A stretch of 64,000 nucleotides of DNA from Candidatus Ratteibacteria bacterium (GTDB lineage Bacteria > Ratteibacteria > UBA8468 > B48-G9 > DTJG01), in assembly GCA_041656495.1 (NCBI GenBank), contig JBBADJ010000001.1:79382-143381 (forward strand), given 5' to 3'. Below, in pieces: positions 7,209 through 62,760 of the stretch. Each line of letters starts with the position of its first letter. The stretch's first letter is position 1. The notes beneath the pieces are model-generated. The model had not been told where the DNA came from. It did no database searches and saw only the letters and a program-made list of their open reading frames with translations. Both the position numbers and the translations under genes were made by a program.

Positions 7209-8287
7209 GCCGCCATACAATAACCCTTATTCCCGGAGACGGGATCGGCCCGGAAATCACTGAAATTACCCGGAAGATTATTCAAGCGGCCGGCGTAGAG
7301 ATTGATTGGGATCTTCAGCCCGCCGGACTTCCTGCAATAGAAGAGTATCAGACGCCTCTACCAGAGAAAACAATCAATTCAATAGAGAAACATCGCGTCT
7401 GTCTTAAAGCGCCTATCACCACTCCTATAGGATCTGGATACCGAAGTGTCAATGTAACACTTCGTCAGCATTTTGACCTTTACGCGTGCGTACGGCCATT
7501 CAAAACATTTGTAGGAACAAAAACCCGATATCCCTCCATAGATCTTGTAGTGATACGAGAAAATATTGAAGACTTATACGCTGGCATTGAAACACCAAAG
7601 GATGCACCGGAAACATTACAACTTATTGACTTTATCTCGGAAAAACTCGGAAAAACAGTCAGAAAAGATTCTGGTATTAGCATCAAACCTATTTCTATAA
7701 GAAATTCAGAACGTATTGTGATATGGGCATTTGAGTATGCAAAAAAATATCGCAGAAAAAAAGTAACCGCGATACATAAAGCAAATATCATGAAATTTAC
7801 CGATGGTCTTTTTTTGGAAGTTGCTAAAACTGTTGCCTCGCGCTACCCGGAGATTGAGTTTGAAGATCGCATTGTAGACAATATGGCCATGCAATTGGTA
7901 CAAAAACCAGAACTGTACGATATTCTTGTCTGTCCGAATCTATACGGAGATATTCTCTCGGATCTATGTGCTGGACTAATCGGAGGGCTCGGAATGTCGC
8001 CCGGAGGAAATATAGGAGAGAGCGCGGCAATCTTTGAAGCAACCCATGGAAGCGCTCCCAAATATGCAGGACAAGATAAAGTCAATCCTTCGGCGCTCAT
8101 TCTTGCCGCAGTCCTGATGTTGCGGCATATCAAAGAAGAAAAGGCCGCAAACGCTATTGAAGAAGCTCTTGCCGCTGTTATTGCCGAAGGACGTTATGTT
8201 ACCTATGATCTGAAACAAGCCGGAGAAATACCGGCAAAATCCTCTGAGATGGGCGAAGCGATTATCGCTGCACTCAAAAAAGCATAA
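7205..8287 (+). CDS. Isocitrate / homoisocitrate / isopropylmalate dehydrogenase family protein (NAD-IDH-like)
   Basis: TLIPGDGIGPE N-terminus; SVNVTLRQHFDLYACVRP; NLYGDILSDL; 4-nt overlap with the upstream small-subunit gene. Confidence 0.75.
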   Translation: MSRHTITLIPGDGIGPEITEITRKIIQAAGVEIDWDLQPAGLPAIEEYQTPLPEKTINSIEKHRVCLKAPITTPIGSGYRSVNVTLRQHFDLYACVRPFKTFVGTKTRYPSIDLVVIRENIEDLYAGIETPKDAPETLQLIDFISEKLGKTVRKDSGISIKPISIRNSERIVIWAFEYAKKYRRKKVTAIHKANIMKFTDGLFLEVAKTVASRYPEIEFEDRIVDNMAMQLVQKPELYDILVCPNLYGDILSDLCAGLIGGLGMSPGGNIGESAAIFEATHGSAPKYAGQDKVNPSALILAAVLMLRHIKEEKAANAIEEALAAVIAEGRYVTYDLKQAGEIPAKSSEMGEAIIAALKKA

Positions 8288-9905: not shown

Positions 9906-12821
9906 ATGAAGCGATGGATTGGAATAATCCTTATTCTTTGGATCGCCTGTCTCTCGGTTGCCGCGGTATCTGCAGGTACAAAACCCATCCTTCTGATTAA
10001 AGACGGAAATTTTGCTCGGTATGATATTCCCCGCTTCATCAATAGAGTCCTTGCTCCCAACGGAATCGTATGGGTTGAAGTAACTACATTTACTCCGGAT
10101 GATTTTTCACAATACAGTGCGGTTATTCTCTTTTCTGGAGTAACGAAAGCGCTCTCACCAGAAGAGATTGAGAGTACCAAAAAGTATCTTGAATCAGGCG
10201 GACTTATATTGCATACCGGCGGAGGCCTCTTTTTACAGGGACTGAAACGAAACCTTAAACCCCATCCATGGGTTAAAGCCCTTAGCTGGCATTATCATTC
10301 CAAAACAAAGATTGTGGGAAAGTTTTTAGAACCCACCCATCCTTTTCTCAAGGGAGTGGATACCTCCCGTGAATATTCCTGGATGAGTGGATTTTATTCC
10401 ATTACTCCGGGAGAAGGAACCACTGCGATCATAGGAGACGGAACCTATGCTATTCTTGCTGATACACCTATGGAAAAGGGAGATCTTGTCTTTTTATGGG
10501 AAGGTCCTTTCCGTACCAGAGAAACAACTCCTGCAGAACGAGAGGCCTATGAAAAGATCCTTCTCAATATCATACAAAGTGTAGATCCGCTTACTAGAAA
10601 GGAAGATCTTGCCGCAAAATTCCGTTCCGCGGGATTATCGGAAGATAGCCTTCTTCTCTGGAAACGAGACTGGCAATACCAACCTCAAGAACGGGCTCTT
10701 TTTGTGCCTTCTTTTCCTGAGAGAGAAGAAATTCTTTCCGCTCTTTCTTTTGCAAGCGCAATGGATGAACGAGATACTCAGTTTTTCCTTTGTCAAACTG
10801 GAAAAACAACAAACCTTACTGTATCGGCCTCTCCCTTAAAACGGATAAGAGATAACCGAGAATATCCCGCGGCTCTCTCTCTCTTTGTGTCAGAGAAGCC
10901 TCCTGTTATTCCTTCCCTCATACCCAAAGAAGGAGAAGCTCTTCCGCAGAAACTTGGAGAATATAACCTCACTCCCATTACAAAACCGATCTCCCTTGTA
11001 GCGCCAGAACCGAGAATTATATGGGTTTCTCTCTCAACCAAGGGACTTGAACCCGGAGAATATCGCTCTTCTCTTACTCTTTCCACGGACAAACAAAGAA
11101 CTTCTCTTCCTATTTCTGTGAAAGTTTTTCCGGTAAGAATGCCGGTACAGAGGCCTGTAGAGCTTCGCTACTGGGGCGGAGGAATGCCTGCGAAAGAACC
11201 TTTTGTCTCAGAACTTGAACGTCAAGGATCTCCCCAACTTACTCTTTCCTATCCTATCCTTTCTAAAATCCTTGTAGGAGAAGAAAAAATTCCCCTTAGT
11301 GAAGCATTGAAAAAGAAGCCCTCACTCTTTGACCCTGACAATTTTCCCATTCTTGATTTTGAACCTGCCTATGGAGAAGCCATTAAACAAGGGCTTTCTC
11401 ATAACCTTACCTATATCTGGTTCAGAGATGTTCGGACCGGAAGTTTTATAGCGGCCGCAGGCACCGGCGAAAAAACGCTTCCAAAGGTTTCGCAATGGAG
11501 CGAAAAATTCCAAAAACTCTATACGCTCTATTATAAAGCGCTCTACACCTACTTCTCGGGAAAGGGATTTCGGGAGGTAGATCTACTATGGATGGACGAA
11601 CCCTCCAGCACAGCAATCAGAACCACCTATATTCCTAGAGCAAAACTCTTTGCGGAAGCAGGAATGGGCTCAGGGAATACATGGACTGCGGGCGGATTTA
11701 TGACTCCGGAAGAAATCAATACCTTTGCTCCTTATACAAGCGATTTTAGTATGTATACTATTATGCTTCCAAAATTCCTTCAATTTATGAAAGAAGGAGC
11801 ATTAACATTCCATCCACGAACCAAAATCGGCACTACCCGCGGAGGAACAGGGCTTGCATTGCGAAGACCTTATAATGCCGCGAGAACTCTTGGATGGACC
11901 ATTGCATACTATGGTCAACCGGTCTCTTTTCTTAGAACAGGACCTCTCTGGAAGGGATGGCTCTACTATGTGGATTTTGATCAAAAAGGGGCTCGTCCTG
12001 AAGGAATTGAAGGAGAGAGGTTGGTTGCCTATGGATCTGAAATGAAGAGCATTCTTTCCTCAAGCGATTGGGAGGGTGCGAGAGATGGCTGTGAAGATGC
12101 CTCTTTAGTACGGATGCTTGAATGGTATATGGAAAAGCTTGCTCCTTTGGCAGGAAAAAGAGCAAACCTTGCCACTACATTGGCAAAAATCGCCACCAAT
12201 AAAGAGAAGTGGTTCGGCAAGGATGGAAAGGGTTTCTTTCAGATTAAACCCTCCCAGTATCGGGTTAAAGAGCTTTCCTATGATTACGATACCCTTATTC
12301 CGCCTTCCAGTAGCGTGATTGAGGAACTCAAACAGAAAGTTCTTGAAGATCTCGCCTCGCTCGCACCTTATGCAACACTTCTTTCTCCATCGCTTACATG
12401 GCATGAGGTCTTGCTTGTAGAAAACGGAAAAAGCAATGCCAGTATTCTTATTCCGCAAAATGCAGATTCTACCATTGTCGCAGAAGCCTCTTCTTTAGCA
12501 AAAAAGATTGCCTCTCTCTCGGGATTTCTACCCAAGGTACTTCAAACCTCTTCTCTGCCTTCAGGAAAAGGACCCTTTATTATTGCGGGAACCACGGAAG
12601 ATCTTCTTGTTAAAAATAGTCCTGTAGAAGGCACGCATCCTATAAAACTCCCACCATTACAGCAAGGAGACTACAGAATCACAAAAGATGCGAAAGGAAC
12701 TATTCTTCTTATTAACGGCGCCGATACAGAAGGTGTTGCGACCGGAATAAAAAATTTCGGAAGATTTCTTAAGGCGGAAGGAGGCTGGATAGAACCTTCA
12801 CAAAGTACCTCGTCTAATTGA
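9906..12821 (+). CDS. Large secreted protein of unknown function (971 aa) with an N-terminal ThuA/class-I-glutamine-amidotransferase-like domain
   Basis: Signal peptide MKRWIGIILILWIACLSVAAVSA. The N-terminal region (ILLIKDG ... VILFSGV ... LESGGLILHTGGG) resembles ThuA / beta-galactosidase-trimerisation-like folds. The rest of the protein has no recognisable catalytic motifs. Confidence 0.6.
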   Translation: MKRWIGIILILWIACLSVAAVSAGTKPILLIKDGNFARYDIPRFINRVLAPNGIVWVEVTTFTPDDFSQYSAVILFSGVTKALSPEEIESTKKYLESGGLILHTGGGLFLQGLKRNLKPHPWVKALSWHYHSKTKIVGKFLEPTHPFLKGVDTSREYSWMSGFYSITPGEGTTAIIGDGTYAILADTPMEKGDLVFLWEGPFRTRETTPAEREAYEKILLNIIQSVDPLTRKEDLAAKFRSAGLSEDSLLLWKRDWQYQPQERALFVPSFPEREEILSALSFASAMDERDTQFFLCQTGKTTNLTVSASPLKRIRDNREYPAALSLFVSEKPPVIPSLIPKEGEALPQKLGEYNLTPITKPISLVAPEPRIIWVSLSTKGLEPGEYRSSLTLSTDKQRTSLPISVKVFPVRMPVQRPVELRYWGGGMPAKEPFVSELERQGSPQLTLSYPILSKILVGEEKIPLSEALKKKPSLFDPDNFPILDFEPAYGEAIKQGLSHNLTYIWFRDVRTGSFIAAAGTGEKTLPKVSQWSEKFQKLYTLYYKALYTYFSGKGFREVDLLWMDEPSSTAIRTTYIPRAKLFAEAGMGSGNTWTAGGFMTPEEINTFAPYTSDFSMYTIMLPKFLQFMKEGALTFHPRTKIGTTRGGTGLALRRPYNAARTLGWTIAYYGQPVSFLRTGPLWKGWLYYVDFDQKGARPEGIEGERLVAYGSEMKSILSSSDWEGARDGCEDASLVRMLEWYMEKLAPLAGKRANLATTLAKIATNKEKWFGKDGKGFFQIKPSQYRVKELSYDYDTLIPPSSSVIEELKQKVLEDLASLAPYATLLSPSLTWHEVLLVENGKSNASILIPQNADSTIVAEASSLAKKIASLSGFLPKVLQTSSLPSGKGPFIIAGTTEDLLVKNSPVEGTHPIKLPPLQQGDYRITKDAKGTILLINGADTEGVATGIKNFGRFLKAEGGWIEPSQSTSSN

Positions 12822-12931
12822 CACAAAAGACCTCTGGTTTTATAATGTCTTTTGACTATTTATTCTTCTTACATTACCTTCTAATAAAGAAGACAATATA
12901 GAAGGAGATACTTTTATTGCCAGGAGTATGC

Positions 12932-14641
12932 ATGACTGGAGCTCAAATAGTTATAGAAGCATTACAACGCGAGAAGGTAGATACGGTATTCGGGTATCCC
13001 GGAGGACAGGTTATTTTTCTCTGCGACGCATTTTACGGGTGTCCCTTGCGATTTATCCTTACTCGTCATGAACAGGGAGCGGCTCATGCCGCGGACGGGT
13101 ATGCTAGAGCCACTGGAAGAACCGGCGTATGTTTGGCAACCTCAGGTCCAGGAGCTACAAACCTTGTTACTGGCATAGCAACCGCCTATATGGATGCTAT
13201 TCCCATGGTAGCGATCACTGGTCAGGTACCTACTAATCTTATTGGAAACGATGCTTTTCAAGAAGTTGACATTACCGGCATTACACGTCCTATCACCAAA
13301 CATAATTTTCTTGTTAAGGATCCGAACGATATAGCCCGCACTATTAAAGAAGCCTTTTATATCGCTTCTTCCGGCCGTCCCGGACCTGTTCTGATAGATC
13401 TTCCTTCTAATGTACAAAAAGCAGAGGTAAAATCTTTTCAATATCCTGAAACCGCGCGTATTCGGAGTTATAAACCTGTCTATGAAGGACATCCTCTTCA
13501 GATTGAACGCGCCCTTGAACTAATCGCCAACGCGAAACAACCTCTGATTCTCGCAGGAGGAGGAATCATCTCCTCCAATGCCAGCAATGAACTCCTTGAA
13601 TTTATTGATAAGACAAAGATTCCCACAGCATTTACACTTATGGGACTCGGCTCTATTCATTCCAACCATCCTCTAAACCTCGGCATGATAGGGATGCACG
13701 GTACCATATATGGAAACCGCGCCCTGATAGAGACCGATGTTCTTATTGCCGCTGGATGCAGATTTGACGACAGAGCGACCGGAAACCTGAATGAATTTGC
13801 AAAACATGCAAAGATTGTTCATATTGACATAGACCCGTCTTCCATAGGAAAGAATGTGCCTGTGGACATTCCTATAGTGGGTGATGTAAAAAATGTCCTT
13901 GTAAAAATGCTTTCATTTCTTAAAAAACCGAGCGTAAGTACAGAACTCTCAGTACCAGAACCTGCCCGGGAGCAATGGTTGCAAAAGATTTCGCAATGGA
14001 AAAAAGACCATCCGCTTACCTACCCGAAAAAGAGTCCTCTTCTTCAACCTCAGCTTGTTATTGAAACCCTCTCTCGGCTTGCGGATGACGATGCAATTAT
14101 TACCACCGAGGTTGGACAAAACCAAATGTGGGCGGCCCAGTTCTATACCTTTAAGAAGGCCCGCACTTTTATTACGTCCGGAGGGTTGGGAACAATGGGA
14201 TTCGGCTTTCCGGCGGCAATCGGCGCTCAGGTAGCTTTTCCCGATAGAATGGTTATAGATATCGCGGGCGATGGAAGTATCCAGATGAATATTCAAGAAT
14301 TAAGTACCGCGGTAGCTGAAAAAATTCCTGTCAAGGTAATTATTCTTAACAATACCCATCTTGGAATGGTACGCCAATGGCAAGAACTCTTTTACCAAAA
14401 ACGATACGCATTTACCTGCCTTGACGGCACACAACCAGATTTTGTAAAACTTGCAGAGGCATACGGCGCGATAGGCTATCGTATTACAGATAAATCCTCG
14501 CTGGAACAAACCCTCCAAGAAGCTCTTCAGGAGCGGGAAAAACCTGTATTCGTAGAATGTGTTGTAGCTCCGGAGGCAAATGTTTTTCCTATGGTTCCCG
14601 CAGGCGCTTCCCTCAACGAAATGATTGAAGGACTCGCATAA
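12932..14641 (+). CDS. ilvB: Acetolactate synthase large subunit (AHAS, TPP-dependent)
   Basis: FGYPGG, GPGATN and the TPP-binding GDGS..MN motifs. Start taken at the ATG at 12932, which has an AGGAG 5 nt upstream. The ORF track begins at a TTG at 12917. Confidence 0.9.
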   Translation: MTGAQIVIEALQREKVDTVFGYPGGQVIFLCDAFYGCPLRFILTRHEQGAAHAADGYARATGRTGVCLATSGPGATNLVTGIATAYMDAIPMVAITGQVPTNLIGNDAFQEVDITGITRPITKHNFLVKDPNDIARTIKEAFYIASSGRPGPVLIDLPSNVQKAEVKSFQYPETARIRSYKPVYEGHPLQIERALELIANAKQPLILAGGGIISSNASNELLEFIDKTKIPTAFTLMGLGSIHSNHPLNLGMIGMHGTIYGNRALIETDVLIAAGCRFDDRATGNLNEFAKHAKIVHIDIDPSSIGKNVPVDIPIVGDVKNVLVKMLSFLKKPSVSTELSVPEPAREQWLQKISQWKKDHPLTYPKKSPLLQPQLVIETLSRLADDDAIITTEVGQNQMWAAQFYTFKKARTFITSGGLGTMGFGFPAAIGAQVAFPDRMVIDIAGDGSIQMNIQELSTAVAEKIPVKVIILNNTHLGMVRQWQELFYQKRYAFTCLDGTQPDFVKLAEAYGAIGYRITDKSSLEQTLQEALQEREKPVFVECVVAPEANVFPMVPAGASLNEMIEGLA

Positions 14642-14642
14642 T

Positions 14643-15161
14643 ATGGCTAATGGAAACGGACAGTTCTCATCGCATATCATATCAGTAACAGTAGAAAACA
14701 AGGCGGGAGTTCTCGCGCGCATTGTCGGACTCTTTTCCGCGCGCGGATATAATATTGACAGTCTTTCTGTCGCTGAAACAGAAGATCCGACCATCTCAAG
14801 GATGACACTGATTGTAAAAGGCGATGATAAAATCCTTGAACAGATCTATAAACAATTAAATAAACTTATTGATGTCATTAAAGTTCAAGATCTTACCTCT
14901 GAAGAATTTGTCGCGCGAGAACTTGTTCTTCTGAAAGTAAGCAGTTCCAATGGATCATCGCGTCAGGAAATTATGCAATTAGTAAATATTTTTAGAGCAA
15001 AGATTATTGATGTCGGTAAGAAAACTCTCACCATTGAATTGGTAGGATCAAGCCCCAAGGTAAAAGCAATGATTGAATTGCTTCAAACCTTTGGAGTCAA
15101 AGAAATTGTAAGAACTGGAGCGATTGCCATATCCCGCGAATTCGGAAAACGTCCCGAGTAG
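14643..15161 (+). CDS. ilvN: Acetolactate synthase small (regulatory) subunit
   Basis: ACT domain [31 protein letters not shown]. The ATG lies 1 nt after the ilvB stop codon. Confidence 0.85.
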
Positions 15162-15240
15162 AAAAAGGTTGATTACTTCCACTACAAAAGAAATCCAAAT
15201 TACCAGTACCGAGCTATCAATAGAACAATGGAGGAAGAAA

Positions 15241-16233
15241 ATGGCGAAGATTTATTATGATAAGGATGTAGATAAAAGCTTGTTCAATGGAAAAACGGTT
15301 GGAATTATCGGATACGGAAGTCAGGGGAGGGCGCATGCACTTAACCTTCGTGACAGCGGTGTTTCGGTTGTAGTGAGCGAACCAGAAGGAACTCCAAACT
15401 GGAAACGGGCAAAAGAAGAAAATTTTACTCCTTTATCTACTTCGGATTTAGTAAAAAAGGCCGATGTAATCATGTTCCTTGCCCAAGATACTATCCAGCC
15501 AGCTGTGTATAAGAGCGATATTGAACCCAATCTCAAGACTGGTAAGGCACTCGGTTTTGCGCATGGATTCTCTATTGTCTACCGTCAAATTCTTCCACCG
15601 GAAGATATTGATATATTCATGGTTGCACCCAAAGGACCCGGAGACCTGCTTAGGGTACAGTATGAGGAAGGAAAAGGCGTACCATGCTTAGTGGCCGCAG
15701 AACAAAACCCCACGGGAAATGCCCTAAAGATCGCCCTTGCCTATGCGCAGGCATTAGGCGGAACCCGTTGCGGCGTAGTAGAAACAACCTTCCGAGAAGA
15801 GACAGAGACCGATCTTTTCGGAGAACAGGCAGTCTTGTGCGGCGGCGCCACCGAATTGATTATTGCGGGCTTTGAAACATTGGTCAACGCAGGGTATCAA
15901 CCAGAAGTAGCCTACTATGAAACCTGTCATGAAATGAAACTTATCGTGGATCTTATTATAGAACGCGGAATTCAAGGAATGAGAGATGTTATCAGCGATA
16001 CCGCGGAATATGGTGACTATTCGCGCGGTCCCCGTGTCATTACCGCCGAAGTGCGTAAAGAAATGAAAAAAATTCTTCTTGAGGTGCAAAACGGAACCTT
16101 TGCACGGGAATGGATCCTTGAAAACCAGGTTGGAAAACCAGTTTACAATGCACTCAAATACAAGGCGGAAAATCATCTCATTGAAAAAATCGGCAAAGTT
16201 ATGAGATCTATGATGCCCTGGTTAAAAAAATAA
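15241..16233 (+). CDS. ilvC: Ketol-acid reductoisomerase
   Basis: [10 protein letters not shown]-terminus, [20 protein letters not shown] Rossmann motif; RBS GGAGGAAG. Confidence 0.9.
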
Positions 16234-27825: not shown

Positions 27826-28902
27826 TTATCCCTGCGCAACAAAATCAGCGATAAGATCTCCCACTTCCGAAGTTCCCATCCCCATTCTACCTGCTTCAAG
27901 GCTCTTCACATACCCTTCACCCATTGCTTTGATAATGGCTTTTTCTATTAAAACAGCCGCATCTGTCTCTCCAAGAGTTTCAAGCATCATAGAAGCCGCA
28001 CCAATAGTTGCAACAGGACAAATTTTGTTCTGACCAGTATATTTTGGCGCGGAACCATGAATCGGTTCAAACATTGAAACTCCTTCAGGGTTAATGTTTC
28101 CTCCCGCCGCAATACCAAGACCGCCCTGAGTCATTGCCGCAAGATCTGTAATAATATCTCCGAACATATTGTTGGTTACAATCACATCAAACCATTCGGG
28201 ATTTTTTATCATCCACATACAGGTCGCATCCACAAAGGCATACTCAAGAGAAATTCCAGGATATTCGGAAAGAATGGAACGAGCCGTCCTTCTCCACAGA
28301 TCTCCGGCATAGGTTAAGACATTTGCCTTATCAACAATATGAAGGGTATTCTTCTTTTTTCTCTTCTGAACCATATCAAAGGCATATCGGATACATCGTT
28401 CAACGCCCTTGCGGGTATTTACATCCACTTGTGTGGCTATTTCGTCCGGAGTATCTTTTTTCACACATCCGCCGATACCAGAATAAGCGCCCTCGCTATT
28501 TTCTCGGACAACAAGATAATCAATCTCTTCAGGACCCTTATCTTTTACAGGAGTATAAACGCCCGGATAAAGTTTTACAGGTCTAAGATTGATATACTGA
28601 TCAAGAGAAAAACGGATCTTCAATAAAAGTTCTTTTTCAAGAATACCGGGAGCCACATCCGGATGTCCTACCGCACCAAGATAGATCGCATCAAGTTTTC
28701 GAAACTCATCAAGTGCAGAATCCGGCAAAACCTCTCCTGTTTTTAGATACCGTTCTCCGTTAAAATCATACGGCACAAGATTTAAAGAAAAACCTTTCTT
28801 TTCCGCGGCCGCAGTAAGAACTTTCACTCCTTCCCGTATGATTTCCGGACCCACGCCGTCTCCGGGAATAACACCTATCGTATATACCTTTCCTGTGTCC
28901 AT
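27826..28902 (-). CDS. leuB: 3-isopropylmalate dehydrogenase (tartrate/isopropylmalate dehydrogenase family)
   Basis: IGVIPGDGVGPEI; NMFGDIITDLAA; last gene of the leuA-C-D-B operon. Confidence 0.85.
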   Translation of the reverse strand: MDTGKVYTIGVIPGDGVGPEIIREGVKVLTAAAEKKGFSLNLVPYDFNGERYLKTGEVLPDSALDEFRKLDAIYLGAVGHPDVAPGILEKELLLKIRFSLDQYINLRPVKLYPGVYTPVKDKGPEEIDYLVVRENSEGAYSGIGGCVKKDTPDEIATQVDVNTRKGVERCIRYAFDMVQKRKKKNTLHIVDKANVLTYAGDLWRRTARSILSEYPGISLEYAFVDATCMWMIKNPEWFDVIVTNNMFGDIITDLAAMTQGGLGIAAGGNINPEGVSMFEPIHGSAPKYTGQNKICPVATIGAASMMLETLGETDAAVLIEKAIIKAMGEGYVKSLEAGRMGMGTSEVGDLIADFVAQG

Positions 28903-29366
28903 TTCATCAAACCTCCATATTCAATAAGTTCCCGGAGAAAATCCGGATATCGAGTGAATGTATACTCTTTATTCAAAGTAAGGTTACGGAGAATCCCAGT
29001 GGTCAGATCTATTTCAACAAGATCTTTTTCCCGTAACGCATCAACCTCTTCCAGTTCAACCAATGGCAGTCCGATATTAATTGAATTCCGTAGAAAAATC
29101 CTGGCGAAACTTTTTGCCACCACCACAGAAACTCCAAGTTCTCTTAATGCCACAGGCGCATGCTCTCTGCTAGAACCGCATCCGAAATTTTCTCCGGCAA
29201 CCACTATGTCGCCAGCAACAAATGCATCGGCAAATCCAGGACGAATCGTTTCCATACAATGGGCCGCAAGTTCTTTTCCATCAGTCGTATTCAAATACCT
29301 CGCGGCAATAATATCATCGGTATTAATATGATCACCAAACTTCCAGATTTTTCCCTTTACATTCAT
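28875..29366 (-). CDS. leuD: 3-isopropylmalate dehydratase small subunit (archaeal-type)
   Basis: GENFGCGSSREHA; 163 aa; 4-nt overlap with leuC. Confidence 0.85.
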   Translation of the reverse strand: MNVKGKIWKFGDHINTDDIIAARYLNTTDGKELAAHCMETIRPGFADAFVAGDIVVAGENFGCGSSREHAPVALRELGVSVVVAKSFARIFLRNSINIGLPLVELEEVDALREKDLVEIDLTTGILRNLTLNKEYTFTRYPDFLRELIEYGGLMKWTQERYIR

Positions 29367-32410: not shown

Positions 32411-33115
32411 ATGAAAAAGAATCTATTGTTATTTAGAAGTATGGGAATTATTATAGCACTTTTTTTCTGTTGTGCGACAGGATGTGGGAAAAACAGCAAA
32501 ATCTCCGACGAAGAGAGACCTTTTGTGGAAGAGGCTATTCAATATGGAATAGAGACAAAAGGAATGACCTTTCTTCAGGTTACCAAACCATGGACCATTG
32601 ATCTTGGATACGATCAAACCAAAGGATCCGCAACCTATTGTTCTCCCTTTCTTCGTCTCGCACTTCTCGGAAAAAATGGAGCGGAAAAGAACCAAACCAT
32701 TCCAGAACAGGTCATCACAAAGATCCTCCGAGACAATAAAGGAACCCTTCATTTCTTTCTTAACCTCTATGGCGACGAACCTACCTATTCAAAAAGATTG
32801 GAATTCTTTCTGAAACATGGTGAAAGAACTCTTCTTCCTATAAAAAAAATCATTCCCAATTATAGCGAGTTTTCCCGGGACTATATGAATATTGTAAAAG
32901 GAGAACTCTATTTCTCCAACGAAGGTATCGGCGAGAACGATACTGTAACCTTGGTTGTTAAGATCAATCCCTCATCTGAAGATCAACACCATAGCCATGG
33001 GCATCACGACCATCACGATCATCATCATTCCCATTCTGCGCCTGATGAAACTCCGGTGGAACCAGAACCCATTAGATTTACAGAATTTACCTTTGATCTA
33101 TCACAATACCGTTAA
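32411..33115 (+). CDS. Lipoprotein with a C-terminal histidine-rich tract
   Basis: Signal peptide with lipobox ATGC, and the C-terminal tract SEDQHHSHGHHDHHDHHHSHSAPDE. Confidence 0.6.
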   Translation: MKKNLLLFRSMGIIIALFFCCATGCGKNSKISDEERPFVEEAIQYGIETKGMTFLQVTKPWTIDLGYDQTKGSATYCSPFLRLALLGKNGAEKNQTIPEQVITKILRDNKGTLHFFLNLYGDEPTYSKRLEFFLKHGERTLLPIKKIIPNYSEFSRDYMNIVKGELYFSNEGIGENDTVTLVVKINPSSEDQHHSHGHHDHHDHHHSHSAPDETPVEPEPIRFTEFTFDLSQYR

Positions 33116-33169: not shown

Positions 33170-33805
33170 ATGATCTCTTCTTGTGAATATCGTAAAAAAT
33201 CGTTTGAAGAGTATTTTAAACTTCTTTCTCAAAAAAGCCCCTGTCCAGGAGGCGGAAGCGCCTCTCTTTGCGCGCTCGCACTCGCCAATGCACTTCTCTG
33301 CATGGTGGCGAACTACAGCATAGATAGTTCACGCGTCTCTCCAGACCATCGGCGCCAACTTCGCACCATTCTTGACAATGCACATTCTCTCGGAGAAAAA
33401 ATACTTGATGCCGTGGAAAAAGATAGCGAACTCTTCATCGCTATCCAAAATTCTTCCCGCAAAGCTAAAAAAGATCCTTTATGTCAATCACTTTTCCATG
33501 ACGCCTTGAAAAACTCTATTCTCTTCCATCTTACGGCACTAGCATGGGGAATAAAAATCATTACATGGAATCATACACTTCTTACGCAAGGAAACCCTAA
33601 TCTTGCCAGCGATGCGCGCGTCTCCGCATCTCTGGCGTCAGGATCGTTCCAAGGCCTGAAAACTCTTATTCATGTTAACCTTGAGGAGATACCTGACGAC
33701 GATCCTTTCCATATCCGGTTTCTCACTATAACCAACCATCTTTCCGATCTTTTTCTCCAGCGCGACGCGTTCTTTCAGGAGATGAAAGAGAAAAACAGGA
33801 GATAA
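33170..33805 (+). CDS. fchA: Methenyltetrahydrofolate cyclohydrolase (FchA / cyclodeaminase-cyclohydrolase FTCD_C family)
   Basis: SPCPGGGSASLCALALANAL signature of the FTCD_C domain; 211 aa. Confidence 0.7.
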   Translation: MISSCEYRKKSFEEYFKLLSQKSPCPGGGSASLCALALANALLCMVANYSIDSSRVSPDHRRQLRTILDNAHSLGEKILDAVEKDSELFIAIQNSSRKAKKDPLCQSLFHDALKNSILFHLTALAWGIKIITWNHTLLTQGNPNLASDARVSASLASGSFQGLKTLIHVNLEEIPDDDPFHIRFLTITNHLSDLFLQRDAFFQEMKEKNRR

Positions 33806-33809
33806 GATA

Positions 33810-34670
33810 ATGCCTGCCACAATTCTTTCTGGAAAAGAGATTGCCGCAACCATCAAAAATAGAGTAACAGAGCATCTTCACGCCTTCAAAGAACAGGGTA
33901 TAACACCCAATATTGCCGCGATTCAGGTTGGCGACAACCCCTCCTCTTCAATCTACCTCAAAGCACAGCGGAACCACTGTCTTTCCGTGGGAATTTCTCA
34001 TCAGCTTCAACAGATTCCCGCCGACGTATCAACAGAAACCCTGGCCGCACTTATTCAACGTTTAAATGAGAATCCTGCAATACAAGGGATTATTCTTCAG
34101 ATGCCTCTTCCTGCCCACCTTGACGCGAGCCTGTTTCAATCAATGATTTCACCTGTCAAAGATATTGAGGGAGTAAATCCGGAAAATATTGGAAAGATCA
34201 TCTACGGAAAAGCTCGGCTCGCCCCATGCACCGCACTTGCCGCGACCCGACTCATAGAAGAAACCGGTATTGATCCATACGGTAAAGAGATGGTTATCGT
34301 CGGTCATAGCGAAATTGTGGGAAAACCTTTAGCACTTCTATGGCTTAACAAATTTGCCACTCTATCGGTCTGCCATATTGCCACTTCACAAAGCGGACAT
34401 CTACAATCCCATGTAGAAAGAGCGGAAATATTGGTTGTCGCCGTTGGAAAAGCACACCTTATTCCCGGAAGCTGGATCCGGGAAGGAGCAATAGTCATAG
34501 ATGTAGGAATCAACAGAGTACATGGTACAATTATAGGAGACGTAGAATATGAAACCGCAAAAGAACGGGCATCGTGGATTACTCCGGTACCGGGTGGAGT
34601 AGGGCCTGTAACCACCGCCATGCTCCTTCATAATATCATTGAGGCAACTAAATGGCAGATGTCATTGTAA
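33810..34670 (+). CDS. folD: Bifunctional 5,10-methylene-THF dehydrogenase / 5,10-methenyl-THF cyclohydrolase
   Basis: ILSGKEIA N-terminus; YLKAQ and PVPGGVGPVT motifs. Confidence 0.9.
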   Translation: MPATILSGKEIAATIKNRVTEHLHAFKEQGITPNIAAIQVGDNPSSSIYLKAQRNHCLSVGISHQLQQIPADVSTETLAALIQRLNENPAIQGIILQMPLPAHLDASLFQSMISPVKDIEGVNPENIGKIIYGKARLAPCTALAATRLIEETGIDPYGKEMVIVGHSEIVGKPLALLWLNKFATLSVCHIATSQSGHLQSHVERAEILVVAVGKAHLIPGSWIREGAIVIDVGINRVHGTIIGDVEYETAKERASWITPVPGGVGPVTTAMLLHNIIEATKWQMSL

Positions 34671-36670
34671 AAGACCTAACGAAGTTTCGTCTAAAACAAA
34701 AAGAAGAACTCGTTGAAACTCTTTCTCATATCTCATCAATATCCCTTCTCTGGTGTGAAAAATGTTTTACCGCAGAAGAGCTTTCCGATAAAGATATCGC
34801 GGCATTCAAAGAGATTTCCGATCTTTCCCATCTCTCTATTTCTCAGGATATCCGGATACCTTTTCTCTGCAACCGTATAAAAACCAGTTCATTACTGCAA
34901 GAAACATTATCCCCTGAAACAAAGAGAATTGCTGTTGCATCCTGCGGTATAGGCATTCAAACCATCTCTTCTCTCTTTCCGGATCTTCCTATTATCGCTT
35001 TGACGGATTCCATTCCACAATCTCTTAATGCTACCTCTCTTACAGCATTTCACGGTATTACTCTCGCAAAATTAATGTGTGCCGGATGCGGCAACTGTGT
35101 CCTTACAAAAACCGCGGGAATATGTCCGGTAACCGCCTGCGCAAAGAGTCTTTTGCATGGTCCTTGCGGAGGCGCTAAAAACGGGATGTGCGAAGTATCT
35201 CCGGAACGGGAATGTGCATGGGAAAAAATTTTTTCTCGGTTGGAAAAACAGAAAAAAAAATGGGAAGATTCCTCTACGCTCCATAACTTTGCCGCTTTTT
35301 CTTTTTCGCAACATCTCGTTTATCGTAAAGAAAACGCCTTGCGCCATGAAAAACCTTTTTATGGAGGAGTTCATCCACCCGACGAGAAAAAAAGCACTGA
35401 ATCATCTCCATTACGCCATTTTTCTCCTCCGGAAAAGGTTATCCTCTTTCTCTCACAACACGCGGGAATGCCTGCAAAACCCCTTGTACAAAGAGGAGAT
35501 TCTGTTTGTATCGGAGAAAAAATTGCCGATGCGGACGGATTGATTTCTCTTCCTCTGCATACAGGCATCAGTGGAACCGTACGAGATATTTCCACTGAGT
35601 GGCATCCTATTCTGCTTCAGCCAATGCCTGCGATTATTATTGAAAACAATGGAAAAAACCTCTTTTCGGACAATTACACGAGATTTCCTAATTGGAAAGA
35701 TACAGACCCTGACATACTCTTAGACCATATCCGTGAAACTGGTATTGCAGGACTCGGTGGAGCGATGTTTCCCACTAACGTAAAACTTTCAGTAAAAAAA
35801 GCTCGCATTCTTATCATTAACGGATGTGAATGCGAACCCTTTCTTACCGGCGACACACGCCTGATGATAGAACGTTCTTCAGAACTTATGGAAGGCTGTG
35901 CCATCGCCGCTTATCTTCTCGGCGTCAAAGAAACAGTAGTCGCCATGGAAGAAAATTCTCAGGAAGCATTTTTATCCTGTTCAACCGCGGCACAGAATTT
36001 TTCTGAAATACGGATTGAACAATTCCCCACCGCCTATCCTCAGGGTGCGGAAAAAATGCTTGTACAAGCAGTAACCGATGAAAAAGTTCCTAAAGGAAAG
36101 ATTCCCCCGGATATAGGTATTGTAATACTCAACGCGGGAACTGTGATCGCCTTGCGTAACGCGATAATAGAAGGAAAACCGCTTATTGAAAGAACCTTGA
36201 CTGTGTCTGGACCTTTCTTCAGAGAAAAAGGGAACTTCATCGTAACAATCGGCACTCCACTAAACCATATTTTCCACGAGACAAAAACCGATCCTTCCGA
36301 CATAGGAAAGGAATGGATCCTTAAAATGGGTGGACCCATGATGGGAACTATTGTTCCCCATACCCGTACCGCTGTCATCAAAGGAACCACTGGCCTGATA
36401 TCTCAGCCTTTTCCCGCGGTGAAAGCAAGTGAAACGCGTGATTGTATCCGATGCGGTCGCTGTGTGGACGTCTGTCCCATGAAACTTTTGCCGCTTGATT
36501 ACGTCGCGCACGCAAAACGAGAAGAATGGAAGGCTTGTAAAGAAAAAGATCTTCTTTCCTGTATTGAATGTGGATGTTGCAACTATATATGCGCATCAAA
36601 AATTGATATTCTTTCACATATAAAAAAGGCAAAACATCATGCTTATTACGCATCTGAAACCAGAGAATGA
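34652..36670 (+). CDS. Fusion protein: an N-terminal MetV-like domain (methylene-THF reductase C-terminal-type zinc-ribbon domain) fused to an RnfC/NqrA-like flavin/NADH-binding module carrying two [4Fe-4S] ferredoxin motifs
   Basis: The N-terminus has SCGIGIQ and CGNCVLTKTAGICPVTACAKSLLHGPCGGAKNGMCEV. The C-terminus has GIAGLGGAMFPTNVK (as in RnfC) and the CIRCGRCVDVCP and CIECGCCNYICA ferredoxin motifs. Confidence 0.7.
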   Translation: MADVIVKDLTKFRLKQKEELVETLSHISSISLLWCEKCFTAEELSDKDIAAFKEISDLSHLSISQDIRIPFLCNRIKTSSLLQETLSPETKRIAVASCGIGIQTISSLFPDLPIIALTDSIPQSLNATSLTAFHGITLAKLMCAGCGNCVLTKTAGICPVTACAKSLLHGPCGGAKNGMCEVSPERECAWEKIFSRLEKQKKKWEDSSTLHNFAAFSFSQHLVYRKENALRHEKPFYGGVHPPDEKKSTESSPLRHFSPPEKVILFLSQHAGMPAKPLVQRGDSVCIGEKIADADGLISLPLHTGISGTVRDISTEWHPILLQPMPAIIIENNGKNLFSDNYTRFPNWKDTDPDILLDHIRETGIAGLGGAMFPTNVKLSVKKARILIINGCECEPFLTGDTRLMIERSSELMEGCAIAAYLLGVKETVVAMEENSQEAFLSCSTAAQNFSEIRIEQFPTAYPQGAEKMLVQAVTDEKVPKGKIPPDIGIVILNAGTVIALRNAIIEGKPLIERTLTVSGPFFREKGNFIVTIGTPLNHIFHETKTDPSDIGKEWILKMGGPMMGTIVPHTRTAVIKGTTGLISQPFPAVKASETRDCIRCGRCVDVCPMKLLPLDYVAHAKREEWKACKEKDLLSCIECGCCNYICASKIDILSHIKKAKHHAYYASETRE

Positions 36671-37289
36671 GCTGGTGCCGATACTTTCCCGAAAACCCCT
36701 TGTTGTATGCTGTTTCGGGTGCGCCGAGCTATTTTTTCCAGAAGAAGAAATTCTCTCTTTTCTTTCCCGGTACCCTGACTCTTATTCTGGCCTCATCCGG
36801 TGCGACTATCTCTGCAATAGAGAATTCTGTAAAGAATATCTTTCTCAAGAAAGAATCCACACTCCTTCCACGGTACTGATTTTTTCATGCGGGGTAGGGA
36901 TTCAAAGCGCCGCGGAACATCTGGAATCCATCCCTGTATTCGCAGGGTGCGACACCTTAATGGTAAATGGTTTTCAGGGAATAAGTATCACGGAAAACCA
37001 ATGCCATCAATGCGGAGAATGCCGGCTTAACGAAACCGGAGGGATATGTCCAATCACCGCCTGCGCAAAAGGTCTTTTAAACGGACCCTGCGGAGGCGCA
37101 AAAAACGGAAAATGCGAGGTGGACCCTGCCATGGAATGTGGATGGGAAAAAATATGGTGTAGATGGAAAGAGCAGGGGAAGATTAATCTCTCTCCAACTT
37201 CTATCGCAATCCGAGATTATGAAAAACTAAGCACGGGAAGAACCGGATCGTTTTCCAGCCGCCAGATCAACGCGGTCCCCAAAGATTGA
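36639..37289 (+). CDS. metV: MetV-like protein (MTHFR small subunit, zinc-ribbon type)
   Basis: SCGVGIQ; CHQCGECRLNETGGICPITACAKGLLNGPCGGAKNGKCEV; paralogous to the N-terminal domain of the preceding gene. Confidence 0.7.
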   Translation: MLITHLKPENELVPILSRKPLVVCCFGCAELFFPEEEILSFLSRYPDSYSGLIRCDYLCNREFCKEYLSQERIHTPSTVLIFSCGVGIQSAAEHLESIPVFAGCDTLMVNGFQGISITENQCHQCGECRLNETGGICPITACAKGLLNGPCGGAKNGKCEVDPAMECGWEKIWCRWKEQGKINLSPTSIAIRDYEKLSTGRTGSFSSRQINAVPKD

Positions 37290-37338
37290 GACCAAAGGAA
37301 CTTGAAAAAAAGACCGAAAATTTATTATAGGAGAAAGA

Positions 37339-38211
37339 ATGCCTTTCAAAGAAAAACTTCAACAAAAAAAATTTGTGGTAACTTCGGAAGTAGGGCCCCC
37401 GAAAGGTGTTGCGATTGATCCGTATCTCAATGAAGCAGAAGAACTCAAAGACAAGGTAGATGCCTTCAATGTAACCGATCTTCAAAGTTCTGTTATGCGT
37501 TTGGGATCGTTGGCAGTATCTCACCTACTCTATAAGAGAGGTCTTGAACCAATCTTTCAAATCACCTGCCGCGACAGAAACCGACTGGCGCTTCAATCAG
37601 ACCTTTTAAGCGCTTGGGTTCTCGGAATCAGAAATGTATTGGTCCTTACCGGAGATCATCCGGTACTCGGAGACCATCCAGACGCAAAACCTGTCTTTGA
37701 TCTTGATTCTGTAAGCCTTCTTTCCGTTCTTTCGGGATTAATGGAAGGAACCGATATGAAAGGAAACAGCCTTGAAGGCACTCCTGATTTTTTTGCGGGC
37801 GCGGTTGTAAATCCCGGATCAGACCCTATAGAACCCCAACTCTATAAAATGGAGGCGAAATTGGCCGCGGGAGCCCGTTTTTTTCAGACTCAAGCAATAT
37901 ACGATCTTGATATTTTTGAACGTTTTATGAAAAAAGCAGAGAGCTTTCATGTTCCTATACTTGGTGGAATCGTACTTCTTAAATCTGCTGGTATGGCAAA
38001 ATTTATGAATGAAAAGGTTGCGGGAATTTCAGTACCGAACCATTATATACAAAAGATGGCACAAACAAAAAAAGAAGAACGACCGGGCGCAAGCATTGAG
38101 ATAGCCACAGAACTTATCAAAGGAATGAAATCTCTATGCGCAGGCATTCATATTATGCCGCTTGGTTGGGAACAATATGTTCCGGAACTACTGCGTCAAA
38201 GCGGAATATAA
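37339..38211 (+). CDS. metF: 5,10-methylenetetrahydrofolate reductase (acetogen/anaerobe-type MetF)
   Basis: TIM-barrel MTHFR family with FAD-binding context (VTDLQSSVMRLGS, VLTGDHP, FFQTQAIYDLD); 290 aa. Confidence 0.85.
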   Translation: MPFKEKLQQKKFVVTSEVGPPKGVAIDPYLNEAEELKDKVDAFNVTDLQSSVMRLGSLAVSHLLYKRGLEPIFQITCRDRNRLALQSDLLSAWVLGIRNVLVLTGDHPVLGDHPDAKPVFDLDSVSLLSVLSGLMEGTDMKGNSLEGTPDFFAGAVVNPGSDPIEPQLYKMEAKLAAGARFFQTQAIYDLDIFERFMKKAESFHVPILGGIVLLKSAGMAKFMNEKVAGISVPNHYIQKMAQTKKEERPGASIEIATELIKGMKSLCAGIHIMPLGWEQYVPELLRQSGI

Positions 38212-38241
38212 GGAAAATACCGTACGTTACAGGGAGAAAAG

Positions 38242-39936
38242 ATGGAGAACGATCTTACTATTGCGCAAAAAGCGCCACAGAAGGATATCCGCACCATTGC
38301 CGCGAATGCGGGAATTCCAGAGACATTTCTTGAACTCTACCATACCACAAAAGCAAAGGTATCTCTTGATATTCTTCCCACACTTCAAGAACGTCCAATA
38401 GGAAAATATATTGATGTTACCGCTATTACGCCTACACCTCTCGGAGAAGGAAAGACCGTTACAACCATAGGATTATCGCAGGCGATCGCCCGTTTAGGAC
38501 ATTCGGTATTCACCTGTATCCGTCAACCCTCTCTTGGACCGGTTTTTGGCATTAAAGGAGGTGCGGCAGGAGGAGGGTACTCTCAAGTAATTCCCATGGA
38601 AGATTTTAATCTTCACCTTACCGGCGATGTACATGCGGTCGGTCTTGCCCATAACCTTCTTGCGGCATTCATTGAGAACTCTCTCGCAAAAAAGAATCCT
38701 CTCAACCTCAACCCGCAAAAGATTACCTGGCCTCGGGTAATTGATGTAAGCGACAGAGCATTGCGAAACATTATTACAGGTTTAGGAGGAAAAGAAAACG
38801 GAATACCTCGTGAAACCCGTTTTGATATTACAGTTGCCTCGGAAGTAATGGCGATTCTTGCGCTTACCTCTGATATTTCCGATCTTCGCGACCGGCTTGG
38901 CCGTATTATTGTGGGAACTACCTATAATGGAGATCCAGTTACTGCGGAATCTCTTCATGTCGCGGGCGCAATGACAGTTCTCCTTAAAGATGCTATTAAA
39001 CCAACCCTTATGCAAACCCTTGAACATACCCCTGTTTTTGTTCATACAGGACCATTTGCCAATATCGCGCATGGAAACAGCTCTATCATCGCGGATCAAA
39101 TAGCGCTTCGCCTAGCAAAGTATACAGTTACAGAGAGCGGATTCGGCGCAGATTGCGGATTTGAAAAGTTTATTGATATCAAATGCCGATACAGTGGGTT
39201 GCGTCCCGACTGCGCTGTTATCGTCTGTTCGGTCCGCGCGCTGAAAATGCATAGCGGGCAATTCCGTATTATCCCTGGAAAAAGCCTATCAAAAAAGATT
39301 CTTGCGGAAAACCTTGATGCTATTGCGAAGGGAGCTGAAAACCTCGTAAAACATATAGAAAACGTACAATTATTCGGAATCCCCGCGGTGGTTGCAATCA
39401 ATCGATTTTCCACAGATACCGAGTCTGAACTAAACCTTATAAAAGAAATTTCAAAGAATGCGGGAGCAAAATATGTGGCAATAAGCAATGTATGGGAAAA
39501 AGGCGGTAATGGCGGCATTGAACTCGCCGAGGCAGTCATTCATGCCTGTGAAGAGGAAAACCATTTCCAATTTCTCTATCCTCAAACTGCCACTCTTTTG
39601 GAAAAAATTGAATCCATCGCAAAAAAGATCTATGGCGCCGAGAAGGTTCTTCTCAGCAAAACCGCCAAACAAAAATTACGAACCTTCTCCCAATGGGGTT
39701 TTGAATCTCTTCCTATCTGTATGGCAAAAACACATCTTTCTCTTTCTCACGATCCCTCCCTTAAGGGAAGACCTCGGGATTTTACCCTTCCCATTGACGA
39801 TATACGGATCTCTGCCGGCGCAGGATTCATATATCCGCTTTGCGGAGAAATTCGCACGATGCCAGGACTTCCCACAGAACCTGCGGGAGAAAAGATAGAT
39901 ATAGATTCTCACGGAAAGATCACCGGTCTTTTTTAA
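38242..39936 (+). CDS. fhs: Formate--tetrahydrofolate ligase
   Basis: ITPTPLGEGKTVTTIGL P-loop; 564 aa; FTHFS family throughout. Confidence 0.95.
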   Translation: MENDLTIAQKAPQKDIRTIAANAGIPETFLELYHTTKAKVSLDILPTLQERPIGKYIDVTAITPTPLGEGKTVTTIGLSQAIARLGHSVFTCIRQPSLGPVFGIKGGAAGGGYSQVIPMEDFNLHLTGDVHAVGLAHNLLAAFIENSLAKKNPLNLNPQKITWPRVIDVSDRALRNIITGLGGKENGIPRETRFDITVASEVMAILALTSDISDLRDRLGRIIVGTTYNGDPVTAESLHVAGAMTVLLKDAIKPTLMQTLEHTPVFVHTGPFANIAHGNSSIIADQIALRLAKYTVTESGFGADCGFEKFIDIKCRYSGLRPDCAVIVCSVRALKMHSGQFRIIPGKSLSKKILAENLDAIAKGAENLVKHIENVQLFGIPAVVAINRFSTDTESELNLIKEISKNAGAKYVAISNVWEKGGNGGIELAEAVIHACEEENHFQFLYPQTATLLEKIESIAKKIYGAEKVLLSKTAKQKLRTFSQWGFESLPICMAKTHLSLSHDPSLKGRPRDFTLPIDDIRISAGAGFIYPLCGEIRTMPGLPTEPAGEKIDIDSHGKITGLF

Positions 39937-61940: not shown

Positions 61941-62011
61941 TGCCCGGTGGTGTAATGGTAACACACCGGTCTTTGGAGCCGTGGTTCGAGGTTCGAATCC
62001 TCGCCGGGCAG
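61941..62011 (+). tRNA. tRNA-Gln (anticodon UUG)
   Basis: Manual fold: acceptor TGCCCGG/CCGGGCA with U1-A72 as in bacterial tRNA-Gln; D-arm GTGT/ACAC; anticodon loop CTTTGGA (U33, anticodon TTG, G37); T-arm CGAGG-TTCGAAT-CCTCG; discriminator G; CCA not encoded. Confidence 0.8.
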
Positions 62012-62760
62012 CATATATATATATATTACTTCTTCTGAGAGAGGATTCGAAAGGAGCGAAGTGGAAAGATTGCGAGTGAGCGCAGCAATCTTCGCGAATG
62101 GCCGACCCCGAACGTTCCGAAAGTGAGGGGCGCCGATCCTCGCCGGGCAGCATATATATATATATATTACTTCTTCTGAGAGAGGATTCGAAAGGAGCGA
62201 AGTGGAAAGATTGCGAGTGAGCGCAGCAATCTTCGCGAATGGCCGACCCCGAACGTTCCGAAAGTGAGGGGCAGCTGATCCTCGCCGGGCAGCATATATA
62301 TATATATATTACTTCTTCTGAGAGAGGATTCGAAAGGAGCGAAGTGGAAAGATTGCGAGCGAGCGCAGCAATCTTCGCGAATGGCCGACCCCGAACGTTC
62401 CGAAAGTGAGGGGCGCCGATCCTCGCGGAGCAGCATATATATATATATATTACTTCTTCTGAGAGAGGATTCGAAGAGAACGAAGTCAGGCAATCCGACG
62501 AAGAGGCAGGATTGCCAGCGAGTGGCCGACCTGAGCCGTATCGAAAACCGAGGCTTGTTTGTAACTTACATACCACACCCGGTATAACTTGAGCCGAGGT
62601 GGTGCGTCATACCAAACTTAACATGACGGTGAAGCACCAGGCAAGGCGCCGCACCTACGACCACTCTTCTTTGGAATTCCTTTGGAAGAGGATGTGCGTA
62701 ACGTATTTCAGCCGCACAATCCTCGCGGAGCAGCATATATATATTACTTTTCCTCACCAC
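61997..62760 (+). repeat. Tandem array of 139-142-bp direct repeats, each beginning with the 17-nt 3' end of tRNA-Gln (ATCCTCGCCGGGCAGCA) followed by a variable (AT)5-8 tract. Four tandem copies and one distal copy
   Basis: 17-mer copies at 61997, 62136, 62278, 62419 (variant CGCGGAGCAG) and 62719. The unit body is near-identical and contains the palindromes TTCGAA, TTCGCGAA and GAACGTTC. Confidence 0.85.

Follow-up and report, generated by a model that had tools for sequence, protein, structure and literature searches.

A six-gene tetrahydrofolate one-carbon cluster with a predicted RnfC2-MetV-MetF methylene-tetrahydrofolate reductase in Candidatus Ratteibacteria

Which steps of one-carbon (C1) metabolism are encoded by six closely packed genes of a Candidatus Ratteibacteria bacterium, and to which type of reductase would three of their products belong? 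The genes lie in a 64-kb stretch of contig JBBADJ010000001.1 (positions 79,382 to 143,381 of the forward strand; hereafter the window, with coordinates counted from its first nucleotide) and are ordered fchA-folD-rnfC2-metV-metF-fhs. We consider it probable, at roughly 0.8, that they form one operon for the tetrahydrofolate (THF)-bound C1 steps from formate to methyl-THF, with an RnfC2-MetV-MetF methylene-THF reductase like that known from Acetobacterium woodii. The six genes are as follows.

33170..33805, + strand: fchA-like gene, 211 aa; FchA-like protein of the FTCD_C family, probable methenyl-THF cyclohydrolase
33810..34670, + strand: folD homologue, 286 aa; probable monofunctional methylene-THF dehydrogenase in which the YxxxK lysine is Gln
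34652..36670, + strand: rnfC2 (MetV::RnfC fusion), 672 aa; proposed electron-input subunit of the reductase
36639..37289, + strand: metV, 216 aa; small iron-sulphur (FeS)/zinc subunit of the reductase
37339..38211, + strand: metF, 290 aa; catalytic flavoprotein subunit, methylene-THF reductase of the MetV-associated type
38242..39936, + strand: fhs, 564 aa; formate-tetrahydrofolate ligase

The MetV::RnfC fusion and its reductase partners

The 672-aa product of rnfC2 joins a MetV-like domain (residues ~1-205) to an RnfC core (residues 236-663). Pfam places DUF5981/'MTHFR C-terminal' at residues 125-203, RnfC_N at 236-335, Complex1_51K at 360-501 and a 4Fe-4S dicluster domain at 598-650, and the core, which scores 456 bits with the NCBIfam rnfC model TIGR01945 (cutoff 246), comprises a barrel-sandwich domain, a flavin mononucleotide (FMN)/NADH-binding domain and two 4Fe-4S motifs. 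The N-terminal 235 residues are 40% identical to the MetV encoded in the window itself (E=3e-40). The solved A. woodii RnfC chain 9eri_C can be aligned with residues 235-663 from one end to the other (E=4e-92), its flavin/NADH motif GLGGATFPT facing GLGGAMFPT of the fusion and both CxxCxxCxxxCP motifs being matched. The likeness extends over the whole protein, with 39% identity over 649 aa to RnfC2 of A. paludosum, where 22 of 22 conserved cysteines are retained, and 38-39% identity to Acetobacterium RnfC2 across residues 6-671. Because the identical 672-aa protein is recorded on several contigs of independent datasets, the fusion is not an assembly artefact.

The remaining subunits point to the same system. 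MetV carries DUF5981 (99 bits, 1.1e-28) and shares 43% identity with its A. paludosum counterpart (E=1e-57); 13 cysteines are invariant in 49 of 49 MetVs, that of the window included, with C104 as an extra invariant cysteine absent from the RnfC2 N-domains. A sequence search for solved structures of MetV returned none. MetF belongs to Pfam MTHFR (129 bits, 2.2e-37) and has 54% identity to the A. paludosum protein (E=8e-106) and 71-76% to MetF of Dehalococcoidales and Aerophobetes, as against 26 bits with the E. coli-type model PRK09432 and 63 bits with TIGR00676; its nearest solved structures are remote (E ~5e-8). Fhs matches Pfam FTHFS with 850 bits (6e-256) and, over residues 1-564, NCBIfam PRK13505 with 793 bits (cutoff 652).

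From fchA through folD, rnfC2, metV and metF to fhs, the intergenic spacing is +4, -19, -32, +49 and +30 nt, so the start of metV lies 32 nt inside the end of rnfC2, and the overlapping or near-abutting arrangement of the six genes suggests co-translation. Their G+C content (0.43-0.445) matches that of the flanks, and a signal of horizontal transfer, sought by composition, was not found.

In A. woodii, cluster II is ordered fhs1-fchA-folD-rnfC2-metV-metF, and its RnfC2 is an RnfC homologue extended at the N-terminus by 220 aa that resemble MetV (PMC3315566). The purified RnfC2-MetV-MetF complex, termed the 'type III' reductase, has a 1:1:1 composition with 2 FMN and with Fe and S contents in keeping with the six [4Fe4S] clusters predicted; it depends on NADH, and ferredoxin neither stimulates it nor is reduced by it (PMC8760232). 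The window cluster shares with cluster II all six gene families, the architecture of the fusion, the order rnfC2-metV-metF and the position of fchA-folD directly upstream, and differs in having fhs at its 3' rather than its 5' end. Identity to the Acetobacterium proteins rises from FchA (23%) through FolD (32%), RnfC2 (39%) and MetV (43%) to MetF (54%), and the hosts are distant, one a candidate phylum of Gram-negative type, with lipopolysaccharide (LPS) genes in the window, and the other a Firmicute. In every feature that can be tested from sequence, the predicted reductase matches the A. woodii type III enzyme. The type II MetVF reductases of Clostridium ljungdahlii, Thermoanaerobacter kivui and Eubacterium callanderi have the same MetF and MetV families but no RnfC2 and make no use of NAD(P)H (PMC8760232), whereas in the window rnfC2 overlaps metV. 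The type IV MetFV-HdrCBA-MvhD reductases of other acetogens likewise share the MetF/MetV core (PMC8760232) but add Hdr and MvhD, for which the 64 kb holds no genes.

On these points the first-pass annotation of the locus, made from the DNA letters and their translations, holds up well. Its six tightly packed, co-directional open reading frames (ORFs) were all found, the Pfam and NCBIfam hidden Markov models (HMMs) put the MetV-like and RnfC-like ORFs in the families that it had named, and the likeness that it drew to A. woodii MetF/MetV/RnfC2 is borne out alike by the HMMs, the Acetobacterium loci, the synteny and the paralogue tree described below. A methionine-operon context for MetF, which it had put forward as a sign of a biosynthetic reductase, is not what surrounds the gene, and MetF itself is far nearer to the Acetobacterium protein than to the E. 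coli model.

That annotation had also thought the cluster notable for its lineage, a view that the distribution of the fusion does not support. A scan of 185,579 species genomes gave full-length matches in the Firmicutes (Acetobacterium paludosum, A. tundrae, many Blautia, Marvinbryantia, Sporobacter, Bilifractor, Lachnospiraceae and Oscillospiraceae) and, elsewhere, in Ratteibacteria, Omnitrophota, Aerophobetes, Dehalococcoidales and Elusimicrobia. The best 120 database matches (40-46% identity) all have the same architecture, and those among them that carry a phylum name are Ratteibacteria, Omnitrophica, Elusimicrobia (one of them an Endomicrobiia) and Aerophobetes. The fusion is thus common in the five groups outside the Firmicutes, and its presence here is not exceptional. 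By tblastn mapping, the order rnfC2-metV-metF holds in all 45 loci that have the fusion and an intact downstream flank, drawn from all six groups, while plain RnfC loci lack metV and metF.

Trees of the two parts of the protein differ in what they resolve. A neighbour-joining (NJ) tree built from 49 RnfC2 N-domains and the 49 MetVs encoded beside them splits cleanly into N-domains and MetVs (bootstrap 99/100), so that the N-domain of the window is the same paralogue as in Acetobacterium; this tree supports one origin of the N-domain paralogue. A crude NJ tree of the RnfC core instead gives two deep groups of fusions, one from Firmicutes and one from candidate phyla, with plain RnfCs between them, and recovers the fusions as monophyletic in 6 of 100 bootstraps.

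NCBI names the fusion 'electron transport complex subunit RsxC', and on that name it would be the RnfC/RsxC subunit of a membrane Rnf complex, unrelated to any reductase. Its C-terminal 430 residues do pass the rnfC cutoff, the solved RnfCs of Rnf complexes from A. woodii (9eri_C), Azotobacter (8ahx_C) and Clostridium (7zc6_C) align to residues 235-663 with E=4e-92 to 6e-87, and the core tree puts the protein no nearer to the RnfC2 of Firmicutes than to plain RnfC. We nevertheless find this hardly credible: plain RnfCs have no counterpart of the extra 230-residue MetV-like N-domain with its 12 conserved cysteines, which is orthologous to the N-domain of Acetobacterium RnfC2; no rnfABDEG genes accompany the fusion in the window, whose genes include no Rnf/Nqr membrane-subunit family; and metV-metF follow it in every locus with an intact downstream flank, both genes being missing from the plain RnfC loci. 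The public name therefore hides a reductase, and metabolic reconstructions of phyla that carry the fusion may, if they rely on it, miscount both Rnf complexes and types of methylene-THF reductase.

Two loci from the comparison stand apart. On contig CAVEKJ010000128.1, labelled Prevotella sp., the rnfC2-metV-metF set falls tightly with Blautia and Ruminococcus in the NJ tree, and the contig is probably mis-binned or the genes recently transferred. On Ga0078972_1003171 (9995-15841), fchA and a Gln-type folD are followed by ~2.8 kb without annotation and then by metV-metF, with no RnfC2 fusion, and the same folate cluster may there have a different electron-input module.

The FolD homologue and its FchA-like neighbour

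The FolD homologue contains both Pfam domains of its family (THF_DHG_CYH, PF00763, 113.9 bits, 6.4e-33; THF_DHG_CYH_C, PF02882, 197.6 bits, 1e-58) and so shares the two-domain fold family of the bifunctional enzymes of E. coli (1B0A), P. aeruginosa (4A5O) and human (DC301), yet it scores under the cutoff in all 25 NCBIfam FolD models shown, the best being PRK10792 with 308 against 355 bits. Its motif S-S-I-Y-L-K-A-Q-R places Gln where E. coli has K54 and the P. aeruginosa FolD also has Lys, and Glu stands at the position of E. coli D121; the Tyr of YxxxK and Gln98 are retained. In a comparison of bifunctional enzymes, the YxxxK lysine (human K56, E. coli K54) was one of the key residues that showed strict conservation, and a role in the cyclohydrolase reaction has been proposed for it (PMC3368264). 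The K56E mutant keeps measurable dehydrogenase kinetics, with a Km more than sixfold higher (PMC9173628), and a monofunctional enzyme in Peptostreptococcus (Blautia) productus has been cited (PMC6443876).

The loss of this lysine goes together with the presence of an adjacent FchA-like gene. The loci fetched for comparison, including those from a metagenome scan with an FchA alignment, whose matches were for the most part remote FTCD_C proteins (22-34% identity) with varied gene neighbourhoods, hold 31 FolD homologues, 30 of them beside an FchA-like gene. In 29 of these 30, which comprise only three or four sequence groups and are not independent events, the lysine is gone, replaced by Ala (15), Ile (8) or Gln (6). 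The sole homologue with no FchA neighbour, from the Dehalococcoidales locus L010, retains it, as do three solved bifunctional FolD chains with printed alignments (two of them E. coli), and these proteins make up a tiny control. Acetobacterium FolD also lacks the lysine and has Ile there. Because the Ala, Ile and Gln classes fall in different sequence groups, and because the group of the window protein is nearer to the bifunctional FolDs (272 bits to P. aeruginosa FolD, as against 32% identity to the Acetobacterium type), the alignments suggest that the lysine was lost more than once. The methylene-THF dehydrogenase of A. woodii was reportedly purified as a monofunctional enzyme.

Since its catalytic lysine is Gln, and since that loss tracks an adjacent FchA-like gene, the FolD homologue of the window is probably a dehydrogenase only, and the FchA-like cyclohydrolase would then not be redundant. 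The first-pass annotation, which had called FolD bifunctional and the second cyclohydrolase redundant, was probably wrong on this point. The association of lysine-less FolD with FchA offers a simple sequence rule for annotating FolDs as monofunctional or bifunctional.

The FchA-like protein itself, named 'cyclodeaminase/cyclohydrolase family protein' by NCBI, matches Pfam FTCD_C (PF04961) with 96.8 bits (1.7e-27, cutoff 24.5), where A. paludosum FchA scores 223 bits. It is 33-34% identical to its homologues in three related loci, of which those from Ratteibacteria (L008) and Omnitrophota (L009) read fchA-folD-rnfC2-metV up to the contig end and the third (L089) reads fchA-folD-rnfC2-metV-metF followed by moaA and moaC.

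Taken together, the assignments yield a predicted path. Fhs would join formate to THF at the expense of ATP, giving 10-formyl-THF; the FchA-like protein would interconvert 10-formyl-THF and methenyl-THF; and the FolD homologue, as a dehydrogenase only, would interconvert methenyl-THF and methylene-THF with a pyridine nucleotide. RnfC2-MetV-MetF would then reduce methylene-THF to methyl-THF, with NADH oxidised at the FMN of the RnfC2 core and electrons reaching the MetF flavin by way of the FeS clusters in RnfC2 and MetV, presumably without bifurcation, as in the A. woodii enzyme. The identity of the genes, the architecture and orthology of their products and the conservation of cofactor ligands are observed; the specificity for NADH, the subunit stoichiometry, the lack of bifurcation and the physiological direction would follow by analogy with A. 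woodii, and the division of labour between FolD and FchA from the substitutions described above.

Besides the few sequence groups and the tiny control behind the FolD count, several observations weigh against this reading. Promoter and terminator scans gave counts equal to the shuffled expectation, no better than chance. The FchA-like protein is very divergent from A. paludosum FchA and reaches 61 bits with the NCBIfam FchA equivalog NF045657, under its cutoff of 275, and FTCD_C takes in formimino-THF cyclodeaminases too; because the NF045657 cutoff is missed, the assignment as FchA rests on family and context. A part in the dehydrogenase reaction, too, has been ascribed to Lys56 (PMC3368264), and the Gln-variant FolD could be impaired in both activities. 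As for the wider pathway, carbon monoxide dehydrogenase/acetyl-CoA synthase (CODH/ACS), formate dehydrogenase, Rnf membrane subunits, an Ech complex and corrinoid methyltransferases are absent from the annotated genes of the window, every one of which was considered, so that the earlier statement on CODH/ACS stands. Housekeeping genes of biosynthesis (leu, ilv, pur, asd, LPS) make up the flanks, with cca, for the CCA-adding enzyme, starting 16 nt past fhs, and such a setting suits constitutive anabolism no less than catabolism.

Metabolic role of the cluster

The weights that we give to the three roles considered first below are judgement, not measurement. Tentatively, and at somewhat less than even odds, we favour a reductive methyl branch that would feed CODH/ACS encoded elsewhere; complete or partial Wood-Ljungdahl pathways, often starting from formate, have been predicted in many Omnitrophota (PMC10066038). 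The choice of NADH as reductant, as opposed to ferredoxin or a bifurcating Hdr module, would fix the ATP balance of any Wood-Ljungdahl-type metabolism in such organisms.

It is possible, if doubtful, that the genes serve housekeeping C1 supply only, providing 10-formyl-, methylene- and methyl-THF for purines, thymidylate and methionine in a fermenter that has no Wood-Ljungdahl pathway. The biosynthetic or housekeeping nature of all the neighbours, the tight spacing to cca and the lack of CODH/ACS in 64 kb are what one would expect of such a role, and acetate formation with only part of a Wood-Ljungdahl pathway, or with none, has been predicted for many Omnitrophota (PMC10066038). However, the literature on acetogen RnfC2 that we found describes the three-subunit, NADH-linked reductase only from acetogens of the Firmicutes (e.g. 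Acetobacterium, Blautia), no methionine synthase gene is among the annotated genes of the window, and a search of the window for ZTP (5-aminoimidazole-4-carboxamide riboside triphosphate), THF and SAM (S-adenosylmethionine) riboswitches gave none, with only a tRNA above threshold. The housekeeping and catabolic readings are not mutually exclusive. The opposite direction is unlikely, namely that methyl-THF from corrinoid demethylation or acetate cleavage is oxidised to formate through MetF/MetV/RnfC2, FolD, FchA and Fhs with a yield of NADH and ATP. The window holds no gene for a corrinoid protein or methyltransferase. Oxidation of methyl-THF with NAD+ is, moreover, thermodynamically uphill. 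Such a direction would suit the habitat: the DNA of the window is also present in IMG metagenome 3300015214, sampled from leachate well LW2 of a Southern Ontario municipal landfill, an anoxic methanogenic site (PMC9723747), where a syntrophic partner could remove formate or H2. It would also suit the Dehalococcoidales locus L010 (CAYMVL010000014.1, 7285-21597), in which a RACo activase and a pterin-binding methyltransferase precede rnfC2, metV, metF, the lysine-containing folD and fhs, and a TRAP transporter, a B12-binding protein and a URO-D-family methyltransferase follow, with no fchA; there, the type III reductase lies inside a methyl-transfer module. The first-pass annotation had named acetogenesis, the reductive glycine pathway and C1 oxidation as possible uses, and the glycine part needs correction, as it would leave the central MetF unexplained. 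In that pathway, Fhs, FchA and FolD would feed methylene-THF to a glycine cleavage/synthase system. The reductive glycine pathway uses no methylene-THF reductase. Three of the six genes encode that very enzyme, and glycine cleavage or reductase genes (gcv, grd) are absent from the annotated genes of the window, which makes this route very improbable here, even though it shares Fhs and FolD with the cluster and has been proposed for a related lineage of the Planctomycetes-Verrucomicrobia-Chlamydiae (PVC) group (PMC12057145).

Whichever role applies, the RnfC2-MetV-MetF cluster is a known, biochemically characterised system in a new lineage and involves no new mechanism. What is new is a divergent type III member in a candidate phylum, together with the refinement of how FolD and FchA divide their labour; the characterised enzyme type is thereby extended to a phylum that lacks cultured members and whose metabolism has hardly been written about, our own search on Ratteibacteria and UBA8468 metabolism having found nothing relevant. 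A bolder proposal, which we regard as quite improbable, is that RnfC2-MetV-MetF and the lysine-less FolD/FchA pair form a long-established module of PVC-related candidate phyla (Ratteibacteria, Omnitrophota, Elusimicrobia, Aerophobetes), separated from the enzymes of Firmicutes as deeply as plain RnfC. If this were so, the module would mark unrecognised acetogens or methyl-oxidisers among these ultra-small bacteria, and in some of them it might couple directly to a membrane complex. In one Omnitrophica contig (GCA_018812925.1, JAHJCU010000003.1, 1-13503), rnfC2-metV-metF lie directly downstream of co-directional genes for an Mbh/Mrp-type membrane-bound [NiFe] hydrogenase (an operon), a ferredoxin and the HycI protease, with hypF a few genes further, and such a hydrogenase-linked arrangement would revive an old proposal in which RnfC2 docks onto an ion-pumping complex.

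Genomic surroundings and minor observations

One further co-directional gene precedes the cluster.

32411..33115, + strand: upstream ORF, 234 aa; N-terminal hydrophobic/Cys stretch, lipoprotein-like; His-rich tail

A gap of 54 nt separates it from fchA downstream and one of 176 nt from the divergent leuA, its His-rich tail reads HHSHGHHDHHDHHHSH, and a Pfam search assigned it to no family. The ORF may be the first gene of the transcription unit and may bind metal; its membership of the cluster is doubtful, and the locus L089 has no counterpart directly upstream of fchA.

Upstream of the cluster, the opposite strand carries leuA-leuC-leuD-leuB, bioY and asd, and further left lie genes for a sigma factor, alaS, recX, htrA, recA, ilvBNC, purA, purM, V-ATPase B and D, an IS110 transposase and dnaK. 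Downstream, cca is followed by genes for a HIT protein, lpxK, a GMP-synthase-like protein, LPS glycosyltransferases and an ABC exporter, and by feoAB, tsaB, grpE, ispE, spoVG and tRNA-Gln; the ~10 kb past the right end of the window hold envelope genes only.

Several features of these surroundings deserve mention in their own right. At 6711-8287 (+), a second small aconitase-type subunit is paired with an isopropylmalate/isocitrate-type dehydrogenase, besides leuD and leuB at 27826-29366, and this pair could serve a homoaconitase or citramalate-type route. Between purA and ilvB, a 971-aa ORF at 9906-12821 (+) has no Pfam family and is 100% identical in several contigs. At 3366-5379 (-), subunits B (469 aa) and D (211 aa) of a V-type ATPase are encoded on their own, with purM, on the other strand, in the place expected for subunit A. 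An IS110-family transposase (DEDD_Tnp_IS110 and Transposase_20) at 1452-2576 (-) separates dnaK from the gene for a prepilin-type N_methyl protein. Left of purM, the gene content of a related contig (L006) is entirely different, so the left side of the region is rearranged between strains. Near the right end, at 61941-62531, tRNA-Gln (61941-62012) is immediately followed by a tandem repeat with a 141-bp unit in 3.5 copies at 96% identity (61997-62486), which may alternatively be described as 1.9 copies of a 283-bp unit reaching to 62531; because two Joint Genome Institute contigs of the organism break inside it, this array is an assembly-breaking repeat.

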